Source of the DNA: Acidobacteriota bacterium
GTDB taxonomy: Bacteria > Acidobacteriota > Vicinamibacteria > Vicinamibacterales > UBA2999
Direction: 5' to 3'
Assembly: GCA_020851565.1 (NCBI GenBank)
Contig: JADZCN010000020.1
Span: forward strand, 2,187-66,186
DNA length: 64,000 bases
Shown here: positions 299 to 50,112 of the stretch, one piece after another
Numbering within the stretch: the stretch's first letter is position 1
Layout: each line of letters starts with the position of its first letter
The notes under the pieces: generated by a model
Database searches by the model: none
What the model was told of the DNA's origin: nothing
Seen by the model: the letters and a program-made list of their open reading frames with translations, nothing else
Program-made: the position numbers and the translations under genes

Positions 299-787
299 CT
301 ACTCGCGCAGGATGGCCTCGGCCTCGGGCGCGCCCATCGCGTGGGCGATGCTGGCGGCGTCCAGCCCCGCGGCGTCGCGGGCATCGCGCCGCGCACCCCG
401 CGCCAGCAGCAGCCTCACCATCTCGGCTCGATTGAAGGCGGCCGCCATCATCAAGGGCGTCCGCCCGTCGGGCCCGGCCGCATCGATAGCGGCGCCGGCA
501 TCGAGCAGCATCGTCGCCACCTCAGTCAGCCCCTTGTACGCCACGCCGGCCAGCGGGGCCTGCCCGTTGGCATCGCGCTGGTCCGGGTCCGCCCCGCGGT
601 CCAGGAGCAGCCGGACGCATGGCGCATGGCCGTGATAGGCGGCCAGCAGGAGTAACGAGTCGCCCCGCGCCGTGGTGAACGCGACCGGCACGCCCCCATC
701 CAACGCCCGCGCCAGCGCCTCGGCATCGCCCGATCGGGTGCTCTGGATGGCCAGTTCGAGAAGGTTGGCAGGGGGCGGGGTGTCCAT
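299..787 (-). CDS. ankyrin repeat protein
   Basis: ANK-like repeats (GDSLLLLAAYHGHAPCVRLLLDRGADPDQRD; DGRTPLMMAAAFNRAEMVRLLLARGA). Start trimmed to ATG 787 (MDTPPPANLL), because the upstream part of the 293-aa ORF runs into the divergent promoter/repeat gap. Confidence 0.8.
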   Translation of the reverse strand: MDTPPPANLLELAIQSTRSGDAEALARALDGGVPVAFTTARGDSLLLLAAYHGHAPCVRLLLDRGADPDQRDANGQAPLAGVAYKGLTEVATMLLDAGAAIDAAGPDGRTPLMMAAAFNRAEMVRLLLARGARRDARDAAGLDAASIAHAMGAPEAEAILRE

Positions 788-867
788 TGGCGATTGGAGA
801 TTGATGATGGGGCGATTCAATGGGTGATTGTGGATTGAGGCATTGGGGAATTCAATTGGGCATTGGG
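788..867. repeat. GATTG/CATTGG-rich degenerate array (solitary arm of the 49.3-kb inverted-repeat family)
   Basis: cattggcgattggagattgatgatggggcgattcaatgggtgattgtggattgaggcattggggaattcaattgggcattggg. Low-GC island in the divergent gap, same word family as both arms of 49269-49545. Confidence 0.8.
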
Positions 868-37186: not shown

Positions 37187-38533
37187 TCACTTCCCCAGAA
37201 TCTCCATCAGGTAATCCGTCGCCACCTTCGACTTCATCAGCGACAGCTTCTGGACCAGGTCCTTCCGCATCTCGATGTCGGTTTCCTTTCGCGCGATGGC
37301 GACGAGCGATTCGGCGTTGCCCTGGACGAAGAGCGCCTGCACCACGGTGCGCTTGATCTCCGGATCCTTCTCCTTCTGGTAGAGAGCCACCAGCGCCTCT
37401 CCCGTGCGGGACACGCCCATCGTCCCGAGGTGCCGGACCGCGGCGCGGCGCAGCTCCGCGTTCGGCTCGCTGTTGGCGAGCTCGATGAGGCGGGTGGCGT
37501 CGCCGCCGACGAAGAGCGCCTGCAGGATCTGGCGCTTCACTTCCACGGTGGCTTCCTTCTGATAGAGCTGCCGGAGCTCCTCGCGGGCGCCCATCACGCC
37601 GAGTTGCCGCACGGCCTCCTGGCGCAGCTCCGGCGCCTTCTCGCCGGTGGCGGCGGCGAGCACGCGCTCGCGGTCGCCCGAGATCATGTAGGCGCGGAGG
37701 ATCTGGCGCTTGACGTCCACATCCGCCGTGGCCTGGTAGATCTCGCTCAGCACCTGCCGGCTCTCGCGGCCGCTCATGCCGATGTACTGGATGGCCTTGC
37801 GCTGCAGATCCGGGTTCGCGTTCCCGCGCGCGATGTCGGTGATCACCTTGCGCGCCTCGGGGGACGAGCTCTGGGCGAGCACGAACAACGCGCGCTCCTT
37901 GAGCCGCGGCGACTGGTTCCCCTGCAGGAACTTCTGCAGCATGGGCACGGCCTGCGCGGGGTCGGAGTTCTGCAGGCCCTGGATGGCCAGCAGCTTCAGC
38001 TCCTCGTCGGCCTGCGCCTCGGGCCGCACGGGCTGCCCGGCGCCCTGGCGGAGCTCGATCTCGAGCGCGCGGGCGTCGCCCAGCCAGCGGCTCGAGGGGA
38101 AGCCCTTCGTCAGCTCGCTCAACGTGGCCAGCGCGTCGGCGTGCTGGGCGAGCTTGCCCTGCGCGTAGGCCAGCCAGTACATCGCGGCGTCCACGCGCGA
38201 CTGCTTCGCGTCCACGACCTGGCGGAAGCGCTCCGCCGCGCGCGCCCACTGGGCGCTCTCGAGGGCTTCCTGCCCGGCCTCGTACTGCCGCTCGGCGCGC
38301 TGACGCCGTCCTTCGTCCTGCTGGCGTGCGGCCTCCGCGCGCTCCTGTGCGGCCTCCGCCCTCTCGCGCTCGCGGGCGCGGGCGGCTTCGCTCAAGGCCC
38401 GGGCCTCGGCCCGCGCCTCGGCTTTCGCTTCGGCCTGCGACTGCTCACCGGGGTCTGCGCCCAGCGCGACAGCCGGGGCCGCGGCGACACACAGTATCGC
38501 GATTGCCGCAAGGGACTTCCTCGATACGCTCAT
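37187..38533 (-). CDS. exported coiled-coil / TPR-like / HEAT-repeat protein
   Basis: GAGGTGG RBS. Signal MSVSRKSLAAIAILCVAAAPAVALG. Charged AEAKAEARAEARA...RERERAEAAQERAEAARQ stretch, then repeated HEAT-like units (VKRQILQALFVGGD..., IKRTVVQALFVQGN...). Confidence 0.75.
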   Translation of the reverse strand: MSVSRKSLAAIAILCVAAAPAVALGADPGEQSQAEAKAEARAEARALSEAARARERERAEAAQERAEAARQQDEGRRQRAERQYEAGQEALESAQWARAAERFRQVVDAKQSRVDAAMYWLAYAQGKLAQHADALATLSELTKGFPSSRWLGDARALEIELRQGAGQPVRPEAQADEELKLLAIQGLQNSDPAQAVPMLQKFLQGNQSPRLKERALFVLAQSSSPEARKVITDIARGNANPDLQRKAIQYIGMSGRESRQVLSEIYQATADVDVKRQILRAYMISGDRERVLAAATGEKAPELRQEAVRQLGVMGAREELRQLYQKEATVEVKRQILQALFVGGDATRLIELANSEPNAELRRAAVRHLGTMGVSRTGEALVALYQKEKDPEIKRTVVQALFVQGNAESLVAIARKETDIEMRKDLVQKLSLMKSKVATDYLMEILGK

Positions 38534-38557
38534 CGATCCACCTCTGATTCCGTCAGT

Positions 38558-38675
38558 GTCGCCGGGGCTGAAGCCCCGGCGCTCCGTACTCGCCGCCGGT
38601 ACTCGTGCCCATGTGCGCGGCGCTCCGTACTTGCGTACCCGGCGCTCCGTACTCGCCGCCCCGGCGCTCCGTACT
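38558..38675. repeat. REP-like element plus three extra GGCGCTCCGTACT copies
   Basis: Full 32-nt element at 38558-38589. The 13-mer GGCGCTCCGTACT recurs at 38619, 38641 and 38663. Confidence 0.9.
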
Positions 38676-38690
38676 GCTCTGCGGCGGTCC

Positions 38691-39500
38691 TCACGACTCC
38701 GGCGCGCGGAGGGCCCGGGGGGCCCGCTCGCGCTCGCGCACTTCCGCACCCACGACGCGCATGCGGAACAGGATGCCCCGCTGCTCGATGCGCGCCTTCA
38801 ACAGCTGCAACTCTTCAGACGAGGCGTCCCCGGATCCGTTGGCAATCTCGATGAGCACGCGCTCGAGGTCGTCCAGCACGTCGGCCAGCGCCGACTCGCC
38901 GGCCTGTTCGGCCGACTGGCGGATCAGGCGGTTTGCCGCAACCAGGTCCGCCGCGCGCTCGCGCTCCGCGGACAGGCTCCCCGGATCGGCGTCGTCTGCA
39001 TTGAGGAGCTCCACGATCACCATCTGCGATCGGTCGAGGTGATCCCCCATCGCAACCAGCAGCACGCCCTCGGGCCGCGCGTCGCCGGCGGTCCCGGCCG
39101 GCGCCGTCGCCACGGATTCCGGCGGCGGCGCCACCCCTGGCGCGCCGGACCAGCGCCCGGCCACGAACGCCGCGATCACGAGCGCCGCGAGGCCGCCCGC
39201 CAGCGCCAGCCCGCGGAGGCCCAACCACGAGGCCCATCCGCCCTGGCGCGAGCGCCGGCTCTCGATGAGAGGCTGCACGCGCGCCCACATCACGCGCTCG
39301 AAGCCGTCCGGCGCCTGCGGATCCGCGTCCGCGGTGACCAGCCCGAGGACATGCCGCAGACGGTCCAGCGCCTCGCGGCACTCCGCGCACTGCGCCAGGT
39401 GCGCCCCGGCCTCGCGCTGCTGCTCGTCGGTGTCCTCGCCGTAGTGATGGAGGACCAGCTGGTCGTCGGTCAGGTGCGGCATACGATCGTCTCTGGTCAT
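38691..39500 (-). CDS. anti-sigma factor (zf-HC2, single-pass membrane)
   Basis: ATGA overlap with the sigma gene stop. HLAQCAECREAL zinc-finger motif. TM LALAGGLAALVIAAFVAG. Helical periplasmic C-domain. Confidence 0.75.
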   Translation of the reverse strand: MTRDDRMPHLTDDQLVLHHYGEDTDEQQREAGAHLAQCAECREALDRLRHVLGLVTADADPQAPDGFERVMWARVQPLIESRRSRQGGWASWLGLRGLALAGGLAALVIAAFVAGRWSGAPGVAPPPESVATAPAGTAGDARPEGVLLVAMGDHLDRSQMVIVELLNADDADPGSLSAERERAADLVAANRLIRQSAEQAGESALADVLDDLERVLIEIANGSGDASSEELQLLKARIEQRGILFRMRVVGAEVRERERAPRALRAPES

Positions 39501-40084
39501 GAACACCCCGCGCCCTTCCCGGTGGCAAAGGGCTCGAGGGCGGCCCGCATCTTCCGCACCGCGCGGAAGATGCTGTGCTTCGTCGCACTGGCCTTGAGGC
39601 CCAGCGCCGCGCCCACCTCCTCGATGGACATTCCCTCCAGGTGGCGCAGGGTGAAGGCCGCGCGTTCGAGCCCGGTGAGCCGTGCCATCGCCTCGACCAC
39701 GCGGGCCTGGATCTGCCCGCCCTGGGCCAGCCGCTCGGGCGTAGGCTGCGAGTCCGCCCCGATCTCGCCCAGCGCGCCCTGCTCGAGGTCCGCCGGGTCG
39801 TGCGCGTCCTCCCGGTGGCGGCGGGCCCGGATGAAATCGATGGCGCAGTTCACGGTGATCCGGTGCAGCCACGTGCGCACGTCGGCGCGCTCCTCGAACC
39901 GGGCCAGCTGCCGGTGGGCCTTCAGCCACGCCTCCTGGACGACGTCCTCGGCGTCGGCGGCGGAGCCGGTCAGGCGCGCGGCGACGCCGAAGAGGTAGCG
40001 GCTGTGCCGCTCCACGAGCCAGCGGAACGCCTCGCCGTCGCCGTCCCGGGCCCGGGAGACGGCCGTCCGGTCACTGTCGTTCAT
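39497..40084 (-). CDS. ECF-type RNA polymerase sigma-70 factor
   Basis: Start MNDSDRTAVSRARDGDGEAFRWLVERH. Region 2 (DVVQEAWLKAH) and region 4 (MSIEEVGAALGLKASATKHSIFRAVRKMR). Confidence 0.9.
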   Translation of the reverse strand: MNDSDRTAVSRARDGDGEAFRWLVERHSRYLFGVAARLTGSAADAEDVVQEAWLKAHRQLARFEERADVRTWLHRITVNCAIDFIRARRHREDAHDPADLEQGALGEIGADSQPTPERLAQGGQIQARVVEAMARLTGLERAAFTLRHLEGMSIEEVGAALGLKASATKHSIFRAVRKMRAALEPFATGKGAGCS

Positions 40085-40128
40085 CCCTGAAGCTTGGACG
40101 AGGTTCGGGGGATTTGGTTGGCGGGACT

Positions 40129-40224
40129 GGGGCGTGGGGTCTTGGGGCTTGGGGTCTTGGGGTCTTGGGGTCTTGGGGTCTTGGGGTCTTGAGGTCTTGA
40201 GGTCTTGAGGTCTTGAGGTCTTGG
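40129..40224. repeat. GGGGTCTT / GAGGTCTT 8-mer tandem array (~11 units)
   Basis: ggggtctt ggggctt ggggtctt x5 gaggtctt x4. G-rich on the plus strand, upstream of the ECF sigma gene. Confidence 0.9.
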
Positions 40225-40322
40225 AGGCCTGGGTCCTAGTCCACCCGGACCGGACGGAGAAGGCATCGGTCCGGCCGGGTGTCCTGCGGGGGCACGGCGG
40301 TTCCTGGTCAAAAGCGAACGAT

Positions 40323-40427
40323 ATGGCAACGGTGACCGCGTTCGAGGCCAAGACCCGGTTCGGCGAGCTGCTGGACCGCGTCTCGAAGGGCGAGGAGGTC
40401 GTGATGACCCGTCACGACAAGCCCGCG
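40323..40427 (+). pseudogene. Phd/YefM-family antitoxin N-terminal remnant
   Basis: MATVTAFEAKTRFGELLDRVSKGEEVVMTRHDKPA matches the conserved antitoxin N-terminus. After that the frame reads through the repeat array and into the next gene. No toxin gene downstream. Confidence 0.5.
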
Positions 40428-40483
40428 AGGGGAAGTGCGGGCGAGCGCGCGTCCATCCACACCATTCATCCCAACGCCCTCGA

Positions 40484-40546
40484 GACCCCAGGACCCCAAG
40501 ACCCCAAGACCTCAAGACCCCAGGCCCCCAGGACCCCAGGACCTCA
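40484..40546. repeat. CCCAAGAC / CCCAGGAC array (reverse complement family of 40129-40224)
   Basis: gaccccaggaccccaagaccccaagacctcaagaccccaggcccccaggaccccaggacctcag. Confidence 0.9.
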
Positions 40547-40567
40547 GTCCCGCACTATGATCACGCA

Positions 40568-41080
40568 ATGGATCCCCGCTACCCCACCGGCAAGTTCACC
40601 TACGACCCCGACGTCACCCCCGAGAAGCGCGCGCAGTGGATTGGCACCATCGGCAGCTTTCCCGCGGAGCTGAAGGCGGCCCTGGCGTCGCTCCCCGCCG
40701 ACAAGCTCGACACGCCTTACCGCGACGGCGGTTGGACCGCCCGCCAGGTGGTACACCACGTGGCCGACAGCCACATCAACGCGTACGTCCGCGTCCGGCT
40801 CGCCCTCACCGAGGACGAACCGACCGTGAGGCCGTACGAGGAGAGCCGCTGGGCGGAGCTGGTGGATGCCCGCACCGAGGACCCGGCGGTGTCAGTGGGG
40901 ATCCTGGAAGGCGTGCACCGCCGGTGGCACGGGCTGCTGCGGTCGCTGGGCCCGGACGATTTCGCCCGCACCGCACGCCATCCACAGCACGGTCGCATCA
41001 CGGTGGACTGGCTGCTCCAGCTGTACGCGTGGCACGGGCGCCATCACATGGGCCATCTCGACATCGTCAGCGGCCGGTAG
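40568..41080 (+). CDS. DinB/YfiT family metal-dependent (bacillithiol-transferase-like) protein
   Basis: RYPTGKFTY, LDTPYRDGGWTARQVVHHVADSHINAY, WHGRHHMGH. Collinear with B. subtilis YfiT as I recall it. Confidence 0.85.
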   Translation: MDPRYPTGKFTYDPDVTPEKRAQWIGTIGSFPAELKAALASLPADKLDTPYRDGGWTARQVVHHVADSHINAYVRVRLALTEDEPTVRPYEESRWAELVDARTEDPAVSVGILEGVHRRWHGLLRSLGPDDFARTARHPQHGRITVDWLLQLYAWHGRHHMGHLDIVSGR

Positions 41081-41117
41081 GCCGAGTCAGGCGGTCCGCC
41101 GGATCCGCGTGGGGCAG

Positions 41118-41191
41118 CCCCCTGCCCCCTGAACCCTGGCCCCTTGCCCCCCTGACCCCTGATCCCTGATCCCTGATCCCTGATCCCTGCC
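41118..41191. repeat. CCCTGAT/CCCTGNC 7-mer array
   Basis: cccctgccccctgaaccctggccccttgcccccctgacccctgatccctgatccctgatccctgatccctgcc between convergent genes. Same family as 37114-37185. Confidence 0.9.
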
Positions 41192-41193
41192 TC

Positions 41194-41943
41194 TCAGTAC
41201 TTGTAGACGAACGACAGCAGCACGGCCACGTCGTTCTTCTGCACATCGGCCGTGGGCGGCTTGTTCTTGAAGGTGTTGAGCAGCTCGGCCTTGATCTGCG
41301 TCGCGGCGGTCACATTGGCGGCCAGCCCCGCGCCGAAGATGTAGAGCCCGTCCTCGAAGTCGTCCATCTTCCAGAGCGCGCTCACGCGCTGGGTGATCTC
41401 GGCCGTGTCGCTCAGCTTGTGCTTGAAGTTCTGCCCGGCGACCACCGCTCCGTCGGTCTTGACATCGAACCCCGGGTTCTTCTCCCACACCATGCCGAGA
41501 CCGCTGTCGACGGCGAACTCCGTCCGATCGTTCTTCACAAGGAAATGGGAGAGGCCGATCGTCGGGGACACCAGGTAGTCGATCTCCTTGAATTCGTCGC
41601 GGAGGTACTGCGTCTGGCCGAAGAACGACGTCCGCTCGGTGAACTCGCGGTCCACCCGCCCTTCCAACCCGAGCCGGTTCGTCGTGAGCGCTCCCTCGGA
41701 CTCGCCGCGGATGAAGAGGCCGATGCTCTTGAAGAGGACCTTCGATCCGGTGTCGCGCTTGACGTCGTACGCGAGGTTGACCGTGTTGGTGTCGCTATTG
41801 CCCTGCGTCAGGGCGAGGCCGGCGCCAAACGAACCGGTCCAGCCCGGAGGCGGGGCGGGCGGGGCCTGCGCGGCGGCCACGGCCGGAACGACGGCGGCGA
41901 GGAGAAGGGCGAGGCAGGAGGAACGGGGATGAAGGTGCATCAT
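41194..41943 (-). CDS. DUF481-like outer-membrane beta-barrel protein
   Basis: Start MMHLHPRSSCLALLLAAVVPAVAAAQ. GSFGAGLALTQGNSDT. C-terminal LLSFVYKY. Confidence 0.75.
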   Translation of the reverse strand: MMHLHPRSSCLALLLAAVVPAVAAAQAPPAPPPGWTGSFGAGLALTQGNSDTNTVNLAYDVKRDTGSKVLFKSIGLFIRGESEGALTTNRLGLEGRVDREFTERTSFFGQTQYLRDEFKEIDYLVSPTIGLSHFLVKNDRTEFAVDSGLGMVWEKNPGFDVKTDGAVVAGQNFKHKLSDTAEITQRVSALWKMDDFEDGLYIFGAGLAANVTAATQIKAELLNTFKNKPPTADVQKNDVAVLLSFVYKY

Positions 41944-44358: not shown

Positions 44359-44464
44359 TGGGTTCTCAGGTTCTGGGGTTCTGGGGTTCTGGGGTTCTGG
44401 GGTTCTGGGGTTCTCGGGTTCTCGGGTTCTGGGGGTCTTGGGCCTTGAGGCCTTGAGGTCTTGG
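44359..44464. repeat. GGGGTTCT / GGGTTCTC array merging into GGGTCTTG / GGCCTTGA units (~13 units)
   Basis: gggttctcaggttct ggggttct x5 cgggttct x2 gggggtcttgggccttgaggccttgaggtcttgg, 18 nt upstream of the otsB ATG. Confidence 0.9.
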
Positions 44465-48152: not shown

Positions 48153-49265
48153 ATGTCCCAGACGCTCACCCGCCGCCAGTTCGTCCAGACCAGCACCGCC
48201 GCGGGGGTGGCGCTGGCCACCCCGGCTACGCTCTTCGGGAAGGCCCCCGCCATCCAGACCGGGGTGAAGCCCGTGGTCATCTCGTCGGACAACGGCAACG
48301 TGTACAAGAACGGGGGGACGAAAACCGGCGTCCAGGTGGCCTTCGACATGATCACGAAGGGCTCGGACGTGCTCGACGCGCTCGTCGCGGGCGTCAACCT
48401 GTGCGAGCTCGACCCGGCCGACACCAGCGTGGGCTACGGTGGGCTGCCAAACGCGGACGGCGTGGTCCAGCTGGACTCGTGCTGCATGCACGGGCCGACG
48501 AAGCGGGCCGGCGGCGTGGCCGGCCTCGAGGGCGTGCGGACACCCTCCCTGGTCGCGAAGGCCGTGCTCGAGAGCACCGACCATCACCTGCTCGTCGGCA
48601 AGGGCGCGCAGGACTTCGCGCGCAACATGGGCTTCAGGATCGAGGACGACCTGAACACCGAGAAATCGCGCGGGCTGTGGCTGGAGTGGAAGCGCCGGAT
48701 CGACCCGGAGCACTATCTCGATCCGAAGAAGCGCGGCGACGCGATGATGATGGCCGGCCTGGGCATGGTGCGCGACGGCCTGATCGACCCGGACCACTTC
48801 TGGGGAACCATCAACTGCGACGGCGTCAACAGCAAGGGCGAGGTGTGCGGCGTCACGACGACCAGCGGTCTCGCGTGGAAGATTCCCGGCCGCGTGGGCG
48901 ATTCCCCCATCCTGGGCGCCGGGCTCTACGTGGACGGCGAGGTGGGCGCCGCCGGCTCCACCGGGCGCGGCGAGGCCAATCTCTACAACCTCTGCTCGTT
49001 CCTCATCGTCGAGCAGATGCGGATGGGGAAATCGCCGAAGGACGCCGGCATGGAGGCCCTCCGGCGCGTGCAGCAGAACACGGTCGAGAAGCGCCTGCTG
49101 AACGCGCGCGGCCTTCCCAACTTCGGCCTGAGCTTCTACATCGTCAACAAGAAGGGGGAGTACGCGGGGGTGTCGATGTACCAGTCCCGCTACGCGGTGT
49201 GCACCGAGAACGGGCCGCAGACGGTGAGCACTGAAGCGCTCCTGGAAGGCCGCGCTGGTGAATAG
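48153..49265 (+). CDS. Tat-exported Ntn-hydrolase, glycosylasparaginase / isoaspartyl peptidase family
   Basis: AGGAGG 8 nt upstream. Tat signal TRRQFVQTSTAAGVALA. FWGTINCDG (putative nucleophile Thr), GEVGAAGSTGRGEANL. Confidence 0.85.
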   Translation: MSQTLTRRQFVQTSTAAGVALATPATLFGKAPAIQTGVKPVVISSDNGNVYKNGGTKTGVQVAFDMITKGSDVLDALVAGVNLCELDPADTSVGYGGLPNADGVVQLDSCCMHGPTKRAGGVAGLEGVRTPSLVAKAVLESTDHHLLVGKGAQDFARNMGFRIEDDLNTEKSRGLWLEWKRRIDPEHYLDPKKRGDAMMMAGLGMVRDGLIDPDHFWGTINCDGVNSKGEVCGVTTTSGLAWKIPGRVGDSPILGAGLYVDGEVGAAGSTGRGEANLYNLCSFLIVEQMRMGKSPKDAGMEALRRVQQNTVEKRLLNARGLPNFGLSFYIVNKKGEYAGVSMYQSRYAVCTENGPQTVSTEALLEGRAGE

Positions 49266-49268
49266 CGC

Positions 49269-49545
49269 CCATTGGCGATTGCCGATTGACGATTGAGCGA
49301 TTCACTGATGATTGAGTGATTGGGGCATTGCGCATTGGGATTGGAGCATTGAGCGATTGGGGAATTGCGGGATTCGGGATTCCCGTCCGGCGAACCCGTC
49401 GAGTCGCGACGTTGTCGGGCGCCAGCGCGACGAGCACCCGAATCACACAATCGCTCAATCACTCAATTGCCCAGTCCAATGCGCAATGCCCCAATCACTC
49501 AATCGTCAGTGAATCGCTCAATCGGCAATCGTCAATCACCAATGG
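49269..49545. repeat. 277-nt long inverted repeat (two ~109-nt GATTG-rich arms, 58-nt GC-rich centre)
   Basis: Left arm 49269-49378 versus the reverse complement of 49437-49545. The first ~70 nt differ at about 5 positions (ccattggYgattg...gattggggcattgcgcattgg). Both arms end in gattcggg. Confidence 0.9.
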
Positions 49546-49560
49546 ACGTGCTCCCGACAG

Positions 49561-50112
49561 TCAGCGTTTCGGAATAGTCCAGTAGTAAACCTTGCGCCCC
49601 TCGACGTCCAGCTCCTTCTCCGGCTTCCAGTCGCCCATGTCGAAGGCGTGCGAGACGATGCGGGTGCCCGGCTTCAGCTCCTTCATCAGCTTGGGCATCA
49701 GCTTCACGTTCAGGGAGGGCAGCAGGTAGAGCGTGACCACGGTGGCCTGGCTCAGGTCCTGCTCGAACAGGTCGCCCTGGACGATCCTCACCCGGTCGCC
49801 CACGTTGTTCTTGGCGACGTTCTCGTTCGCTTCCTTGATACGCTGGGGATCGATGTCGATCCCGACCCCGCGCGCGCCGTATTTCTTCGCGGCGGTCACG
49901 GGAATGCGGCCGTCACCACAGCCGAGGTCGTACACGATATCGTTCTTGCCAACGTTGGCGACCTGCAGCATGGCTTCGACGACGGCCTCGGGGGTGGGCA
50001 CGTAGATGACATCCGGACGGCGCGTCGGGGCGTCCTGCGCGAGCGCAACCGCGGCGCCGGGCAGGCTGGCCACGACCATCGTGGCAACCAGGGCAATGGA
50101 ACGAATCGACAT
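49561..50112 (-). CDS. class I SAM-dependent methyltransferase with Sec signal peptide
   Basis: MSIRSIALVATMVVASLPGAAVALAQ. SAM motif I VYDLGCGDGRI. GGAGG RBS. Confidence 0.8.
   Translation of the reverse strand: MSIRSIALVATMVVASLPGAAVALAQDAPTRRPDVIYVPTPEAVVEAMLQVANVGKNDIVYDLGCGDGRIPVTAAKKYGARGVGIDIDPQRIKEANENVAKNNVGDRVRIVQGDLFEQDLSQATVVTLYLLPSLNVKLMPKLMKELKPGTRIVSHAFDMGDWKPEKELDVEGRKVYYWTIPKR

Follow-up and report, generated by a model that had tools for sequence, protein, structure and literature searches.

Long GATTG-cored palindromes at gene ends in Vicinamibacterales: a probable foldback family with the layout of 23S rRNA intervening sequences

A 277-nt palindrome lies between the stop codons of convergent Asparaginase_2 and methyltransferase genes, at positions 49269-49545 of the window (the whole 64,000-nt stretch of DNA that was analysed), in the 6.06-Mb, 69.4% GC metagenome-assembled genome (MAG) of a soil acidobacterium of the Vicinamibacterales whose nearest named relatives are Vicinamibacterales MAGs. 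The palindrome is real and very stable, and it is probably a gene-less copy of a foldback family resembling the intervening sequences (IVS) of 23S rRNA, now serving as the 3′-end hairpin of both genes. As an individual copy it is an ordinary, old member, and the interest lies with the family. The proposal is that the family comprises foldback, or ‘hairpin-with-a-loop’, elements of Vicinamibacterales that have the 23S rRNA IVS layout. Each arm is a fixed string of about 11 [G/C]ATTG cores followed by a variable short-repeat tail, and its outer CCATTG tip adjoins the start or stop of a gene. Every genome would have one or more copies with a small gene of the PF05635/TIGR02436 four-helix-bundle (‘IVS protein’) family in the loop, and the approximately 125 other sites would have arms only, either around a short unique centre or with no centre. 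What is new here is the link to a PF05635 gene, the association of protein clade with arm motif, and the conservation of cores relative to spacers in the GATTG family.

A preliminary description, made from the sequence alone, had reported a near-perfect inverted repeat between convergent genes, with GATTG-array arms of low GC content around a GC-rich centre, and each of these features is borne out. An inverted repeat finder returned 73-nt arms at 49266-49338 and 49476-49548 that are 93% complementary and 137 nt apart, and inward of these weaker pairing runs on to about 49378/49437. There are 11 [GC]ATTG cores in the left arm and 10 CAAT[GC] cores in the right, where the window average predicts 0.21 per 110 nt, and GC content rises from 51.8% in the left arm and 49.5% in the right to 64-67% for the flanks and 70.7% for the centre. 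Only 3 nt separate the asparaginase stop codon from the start of the left arm (coordinates are in Table 1), whose conserved outer ~75 nt are CCATTG and then [G/C]ATTG cores every 7-8 nt. The inner part of this arm is more variable, and the inner end of each arm is GATTCGGG. The outer end of the right arm, CCAATGG, is 15 nt before the stop codon of the minus-strand methyltransferase gene.

Table 1. Positions of the palindrome, its flanking genes and related features (window coordinates unless marked otherwise)
Feature	Position	Strand	Characteristics
Asparaginase_2 family gene, 379 aa	48126..49265	+	PF01112, E 4.5e-54
Left arm	49269..49378	+	Family model 67.7 bits, model position 1 at 49269
GC-rich centre	49379..49436	.	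~71% GC; sequence found at no other site in the genome
Right arm	49437..49545	-	Family sequence reverse-complemented; model 65.8 bits
SAM-dependent methyltransferase gene, 183 aa	49561..50112	-	PrmA and Methyltransf_25 matches
Single family arm	784..867	+	Model score 56.4 bits
Gene-bearing family copy	C20:97173-98049 (outside the window)		True tips on both GATTG arms; 124-aa protein encoded between them at C20:97476-97850

Folding of both strands, as had been advised, gives one long hairpin either way; the minimum free energies are -198.8 and -200.6 kcal/mol, where shuffled sequences give -105 ± 5 (z -17.5 and -17.8). The centre, which is shared with sister species and has no relative elsewhere in the genome, forms no significant hairpin of its own (z +0.2 to +0.8). 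The earlier remark that the stem is bigger than a terminator needs holds by a wide margin, and a consensus scan for canonical intrinsic terminators (short GC-rich stem plus U tract) found no sites in 48900-49900. A promoter consensus scan around the element found none, and a permissive Rfam search of 48800-50000 gave no match.

The arms are not unique to this site. An iterated nhmmer search collected 200 arms from the genome, and a model of their outer 78 nt recovered 199 arm ends from about 126 sites, 73 of them with an inverted pair and 53 with one arm alone. The related solitary arm that had been placed at 788-867 proved to be a true family member with its start at 784; the CCATTG tip of this arm supplies, as CAT, the predicted ATG start of a minus-strand gene, 299-787, whose N-terminus is ankyrin-like by eye. 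Family arms have a sharp outer boundary and the consensus (G-Y)CCATTG RY GATTG CC GATTG RC GATTG AGC GATTCATTG GGC GATTG GC GATTG GGG CATTG GG CATTGGATTG, so that it has about 11 cores 7-8 nt apart and then a variable (GGTGATT)n-like tail. The median arm length is 88 nt, with about 13 short cores in an arm. The inverted pairs are always in +/- order and measure 87-352 nt from tip to tip. With a partner-arm identity of 0.91 the pair at 49269-49545 ranks fourth of the 73, which is why the preliminary description met with an unusually perfect palindrome.

In general the two arms of a pair are no more alike than shuffled partners are (identity 0.788 versus 0.780; p = 0.34 at variable columns), so pairing itself is under no detectable extra selection, and selection for arm pairing was set aside as a detectable influence. 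A centre of at least 25 nt (75% GC) is present in 34 of the 73 pairs; each is unique to its own site and folds no better than shuffled sequence. The exceptions to uniqueness are two local duplicate pairs with homologous centres, namely the neighbouring copies C114:58207/61382 and the neighbouring pair C5:78481 and C5:82610. When a gene remnant was sought in the centres by comparison with the interior of the gene-bearing copy, only chance matches of 9-14 nt appeared, and descent of the gene-less copies from a gene-bearing one thus lacks support.

Placement with respect to genes is far from even, with gene ends taken from a codon-usage gene caller made for this analysis. Outer tips are at stop codons in 142 cases and at start codons in 50, and the distances are mostly -14 to +25 nt. 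In 20 cases CCATTGA includes the TGA with which the upstream gene stops, and in 14 the CAT of a tip serves as the ATG start of a neighbouring gene, so that the repeats either supply gene ends or mislead gene callers. At C107:38373-39803 four overlapping family-arm matches fall within a long minus-strand gene prediction (37920-41558); the repeat is translated there unless the gene call is wrong. A family member is present in 6.9% of the gaps between convergent genes, as against 1.8% for tandem and 1.6% for divergent genes (chi-square p 6e-15), an approximately 4-fold convergent enrichment. Where a tandem gap has a single arm, this faces the upstream stop in 27 cases versus 6 (p 3e-4), which makes the GATTG strand the sense strand there. 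Tandem gaps also hold 26 pairs, and in these the second arm is antisense to both genes.

Some of these properties are what would be expected if the arms were simple-sequence arrays made by the host and grown in place by slippage after stop codons, as for the GGGNATC repeats of Xanthomonas, with no element, spread or partner involved and with a hairpin arising only because each of two convergent genes owns an array. Partner arms do behave as independent units, each site has its own centre, single arms after stops prefer the sense strand, unit number in the inner arm parts varies between species, and the asparaginase 3′ gap of other relatives contains unrelated repeat-armed hairpins. The placement reported by Rehm et al., including 70-75 convergent pairs (PMC4692102), is also the same. 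Such an origin is nevertheless unlikely. The outer 75 nt are a complex, ordered and sharp-tipped sequence common to about 200 arms and not a pure unit repeat, which makes 200 independent origins impossible; moreover the same tips bracket a PF05635 gene in seven genomes, and in the 26 tandem-gap pairs the second arm is antisense to the genes on both sides.

Comparison with relatives shows that the copy at 49269-49545 is old. The full element is at the same site in two genomes, G010 and G007, whose asparaginase is 98% identical, and a third, G006 (94%), has a variant GATTG palindrome at the asparaginase/methyltransferase site. The corresponding gap of G018 (92-93%) is 57 nt long with a remnant consisting of just the two tips, CCATTGGTGATT...ACCAATGG. 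G012 and relatives further away also have the convergent pair, with no element and with gaps of 25-73 nt, and a strong GC hairpin is present in four of the seven element-free gaps that were folded (z -2.1 to -4.2). Taken with the hairpin-less centre of the element, the hairpins of the relatives show that a hairpin is the conserved feature of the site and that the element replaced an ancestral one. The copy was inserted before at least four species diverged, at a position where relatives have a simple GC hairpin. The six arms at this site in three genomes have a site-specific GATTCACTGA where the consensus has GATTCATTGG, and both arms of G010 have GGG where both arms of the present genome (G000) have GGGG. 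In other Vicinamibacterales the asparaginase 3′ gap holds unrelated short-repeat arrays, of CACAGAGA, GGCTTGGG, GATCCCT, GACGAAT, GACCCAG and others (loci L077, L087, L089, L092, L097, L099, L100, L102 and L149), several of them as inverted arms, and different repeat families replace one another at this one site.

The rest of the family shows similar persistence. For nearly all of 54 elements from G007, G018 and G006, the corresponding site of this genome has a family arm; the genomes differ there in element length, in the loss of one arm, and in indels with a copy on either side. Clean empty sites were sought in close relatives with 85-94% flank identity, and none was found. Among arms still recognisable as family members, which are those that the orthologous-arm comparison covers, identity is 92.4% at 52 core columns versus 73.3% at other columns, with third codon positions of the flanking genes (72-80%) as yardstick, and per-column identity follows conservation within the family closely (r = 0.91). 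Against G006 the non-core columns have fallen to 0.49, the level of unrelated arms being 0.53, and the cores are still at 0.84. High identity of cores with spacers at the random level means that the cores are kept, by selection or by unit conversion, and that the spacers are free to change. Conversion between repeat units, instead of selection, could account for the conservation of the cores. The family is present in 11 of the 19 genomes of the genus. Of 201 genomes sampled across the order, 16 have it, and these belong to 11 of 95 genera and 7 of 19 families.

Conserved cores and enrichment at convergent gene ends might also point to a site acting at the DNA level, either an array for a nucleoid or topology protein (BIME/gyrase-like) or a recombination site for gene gain and loss. 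In four cases two copies flank 1.1-5.2 kb of genes here where G007 has a single copy (C114:58207-61635, C113:187040-188611, C37:3470-8712 and C114:48138-52845), and the homologous centres of the neighbouring pairs on C114 and C5 can be read in the same direction. A function of this type is decidedly unlikely, however, since cores 7-8 bp apart are out of step with the helical turn of duplex DNA, and the bias of single arms with respect to transcription (27 versus 6) argues for RNA or single-stranded DNA. Ordinary recombination between repeats explains the indels. The sites are clustered, with 39 neighbour gaps of less than 6 kb versus 13.6 ± 3.1 expected, but gene orientation within clusters is mixed, unlike that of integron arrays, and an integron-like cassette array was rejected on that ground.

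One family copy, outside the window, contains a gene between its arms (Table 1). The 124-aa product matches PF05635, ‘23S rRNA intervening-sequence protein’ (E 1.6e-11), TIGR02436, ‘four helix bundle protein’ (E 2.2e-16), and PDB entry 2rld (E 4e-9). PF05635/TIGR02436 proteins are related to the DGR accessory protein Avd, and we know of no catalytic or mobility function of four-helix-bundle proteins. The arrangement is not peculiar to GATTG arms, as seven of the eight PF05635 genes of this genome and all three of its PF13366 (PDDEXK_3/GxxExxY) genes lie between long inverted arms. The arms around these 10 of 11 genes are built of tandem 7-10-nt units, a different one each: GGGGTCTT, GGGGATCA, GGGGTTCT, GGGTGCA, GGGTGCGGGC, GAGTGCC, GATTG, GGGCACGAA, GATTACGCG and GCAGATGGAC. 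The GxxExxY/PDDEXK_3 genes were considered as the partner of the family and rejected, all three being flanked by inverted arms that have no GATTG units. No account of the GATTG family, or of PF05635 genes in repeat-armed palindromes other than those of rRNA, was found in the open-access literature.

Other units are likewise not confined to gene-bearing sites. At least GGGGTTCT, along with its reverse-read relative GGGGTCTT, recurs at many sites that have no gene. One of these, a perfect (GGGGTTCT)n array, is at 44375-44414 of the window (G000 C20:46561-46600), and the same unit forms inverted arms around another PF05635 gene (C46:42801-43533). A 24-nt (GGGGTTCT)n pattern, with up to 3 mismatches allowed, gave 876 overlapping matches on many contigs; the reverse-read control, with unit GGGGTCTT, gave 538, and GGGGTCTT arms flank a third PF05635 gene on C86.

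A link between protein and arms comes from a survey of arm motifs around two groups of homologues, made in 200 genomes across the order. The first group, related to the GATTG-embedded protein at 37-58% identity, has 26 sites, and the arms are ATTG-type at 19 of them and GGTGC/GGTTC-type at none. Homologues of the paralogue at C16:32599-32979 (45-53% identity) were found at 27 sites, none with ATTG-type arms and 23 with GGTGC/GGTTC-type arms. The association of protein clade with arm motif is without crossovers (Fisher 2e-12, the sites not being phylogenetically independent). Outside the genus the genes that flank gene and arms differ and the contexts are not syntenic, which implies that the gene-plus-arms unit has been relocated. 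Within the genus, orthologues of at least 62% identity are present in seven genomes, all seven of which hold the family; true GATTG tips flank the gene in all seven, and its position is syntenic wherever flanking genes can be matched. No orthologue at or above 62% identity was found in any of the 10 family-poor genomes of the genus. The assembly of G010, which has the element, is only 62% complete. G006 and G011 have the family and only a 46-49% identical paralogue, with arms of a GATCT-type unit, and the orthologue of the GATTG-embedded gene in G018 (L210, G018:C35:59656-60024; 97% identical) has an in-frame TAA in a genome that retains at least 26 arms of the family; an intact partner gene is thus not needed for the arms to persist. 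The gene-bearing copy suggests the PF05635 protein as a candidate protein partner of these repeats.

Of the three readings that the preliminary description had offered, namely a MITE-like foldback element, a cruciform-prone site and a long structured antisense/ncRNA locus, the first comes closest. The dispersed family of about 200 arms that it implies is there; the clean empty sites, shared centres and linked transposase are not. A classical MITE, in the sense of a deletion derivative of an IS moved in trans by the transposase of that IS, would account for long terminal inverted repeats, the absence of coding capacity and many dispersed intergenic copies, and also for the clustering of sites and the patchy distribution across the order (16/201 genomes, 7/19 families). 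It is highly unlikely all the same, since family-wide the flanks have only a conserved G-[CT] before the tips, which extends the palindrome and is no direct repeat, the lengths range over 87-352 nt with unrelated centres, relatives with 85-94% flank identity have no clean empty site, and there is no transposase gene with these ends, the only gene-bearing copy encoding a four-helix-bundle protein. A REP/REPIN-type element kept by a RAYT (Y1 tyrosine transposase) is barely credible. Two PF01797 genes are present in the genome, and extragenic copies, 3′-end bias and inverted doublets are features that REPINs would have, but there is no family arm within 13 kb of either gene (C167, C37), RAYT homologues show no association with the family, being present in about 6 of 11 genomes that have it and about 11 of 30 that lack it, and the units are core arrays of about 90 nt, not REP units of 20-40 nt. 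The two Y1 genes, C167:5001-5540 (L001) and C37:168143-168418 (L002), are IS200/RAYT-like with HxH and Y motifs and are far from GATTG arms. Membership of either class, REPIN/RAYT or classical MITE, fails.

The palindrome most likely acts as a shared 3′-end hairpin of two convergent genes. The asparaginase transcript would enter the left arm as GATTG-sense RNA and the methyltransferase transcript would enter the right arm, so that both convergent transcripts would end in the palindrome and could fold into a duplex of about 100 bp. This duplex may act as a 3′-end hairpin against read-through and exonucleases, and it may be a substrate for RNase III, as the stems of IVS are; the genome has an RNase III gene at C120:64012-64401. 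The cores would be kept by recognition, and the best candidate for the binder is the four-helix-bundle protein of the family itself because protein clade and arm motif co-vary across the order. We infer transcription, RNase III processing and protein binding, as well as the mode by which copies spread.

An extension of this idea, put forward tentatively as a possibility, is that PF05635/TIGR02436 proteins in general are clade-specific partners of repeat-armed hairpins with 5-nt cores (ATTG, GGTGC, GGTTC and so on) and bind gene-less arrays in trans. The hundreds of gene-less arrays after stop codons would then be non-autonomous sites, and binding in trans might spread or maintain them, or act on mRNA 3′ ends. 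Were it true, a single mechanism would cover IVS, the intergenic heptamers found in Xanthomonas and cyanobacteria, and the abundance of repeats between the genes of soil Acidobacteriota. The 23S rRNA IVS and their S23p ORFs have been known since about 1990, with origin, mobility and protein function unexplained, and intergenic heptamers are in the same position. To these the GATTG family adds an approximately 125-fold gene-less amplification fixed at gene ends, with an arm motif that tracks the protein clade. For annotators there is a warning in that many stops and starts, and most 3′-end hairpins, in these genomes are supplied by repeats.

Among known systems, the Correia/NEMIS and ERIC/IRU MITEs are intergenic foldbacks of 100-350 nt that are co-transcribed with their neighbours, and Correia elements are cut by RNase III and are able to supply gene ends. 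The likeness to the GATTG family is that of intergenic foldback repeats of 100-350 nt; in contrast to them, the GATTG family is without a uniform internal sequence, a parent IS or insertion polymorphism in the relatives examined. The REP/BIME and REPIN-RAYT systems reportedly described by Bertels & Rainey in Proteobacteria resemble it in having many extragenic palindromes near 3′ ends, inverted doublets and vertical persistence at sites, and also in that one repeat-flanked gene copy exists beside many gene-less copies. The flanked gene here, however, encodes a four-helix-bundle protein and not a Y1 transposase, and the units are far longer and built of tandem repeats.

The GGGNATC repeats of Xanthomonas and Nostoc are found no more than 50 bp after stops, are on the sense strand and are rare in divergent gaps; they include 70-75 convergent inverted pairs, and most of the repeats are transcribed (Rehm et al. 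2015, PMC4692102). They share with the GATTG family intergenic tandem units of 7-8 nt with G runs, sense placement within 50 bp after stops, rarity between divergent genes, inverted pairs between convergent genes, and unit numbers that differ between relatives while orthologous sites are kept. The GATTG unit differs in being GATTGNN/GGGTGATT and in that the outer 75 nt of an arm are ordered and tipped and not a pure unit array, and the gene-bearing copy and the clade-motif link seen here are unreported for GGGNATC.

The closest parallel is with the IVS of 23S rRNA in Leptospira and Coxiella. The Coxiella IVS has an inverted-repeat stem with tandem GACAGAT heptamers, whose number varies by strain, and an S23p ORF in the loop; its stem is cut by RNase III, and it is considered a selfish element of unknown origin and mobility (Warrier et al. 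2016, PMC4990558). Long inverted-repeat stem, tandem heptamers and a PF05635 ORF in the loop of the gene-bearing copy are common to both. The stem-enclosed PF05635 ORF is that of C20:97173-98049 and its orthologues in six other genomes, whereas 49269-49545 is gene-less, as are most GATTG copies. The arms here are arrays of about 90 nt as against a 28-bp stem in the IVS, the elements are between protein-coding genes at about 125 sites, and RNase III cutting, established for the IVS, is for the GATTG family a prediction from the likeness of the stems. With its stem, heptamers and S23p layout the GATTG family thus joins IVS and intergenic heptamers, and it does so outside rRNA.
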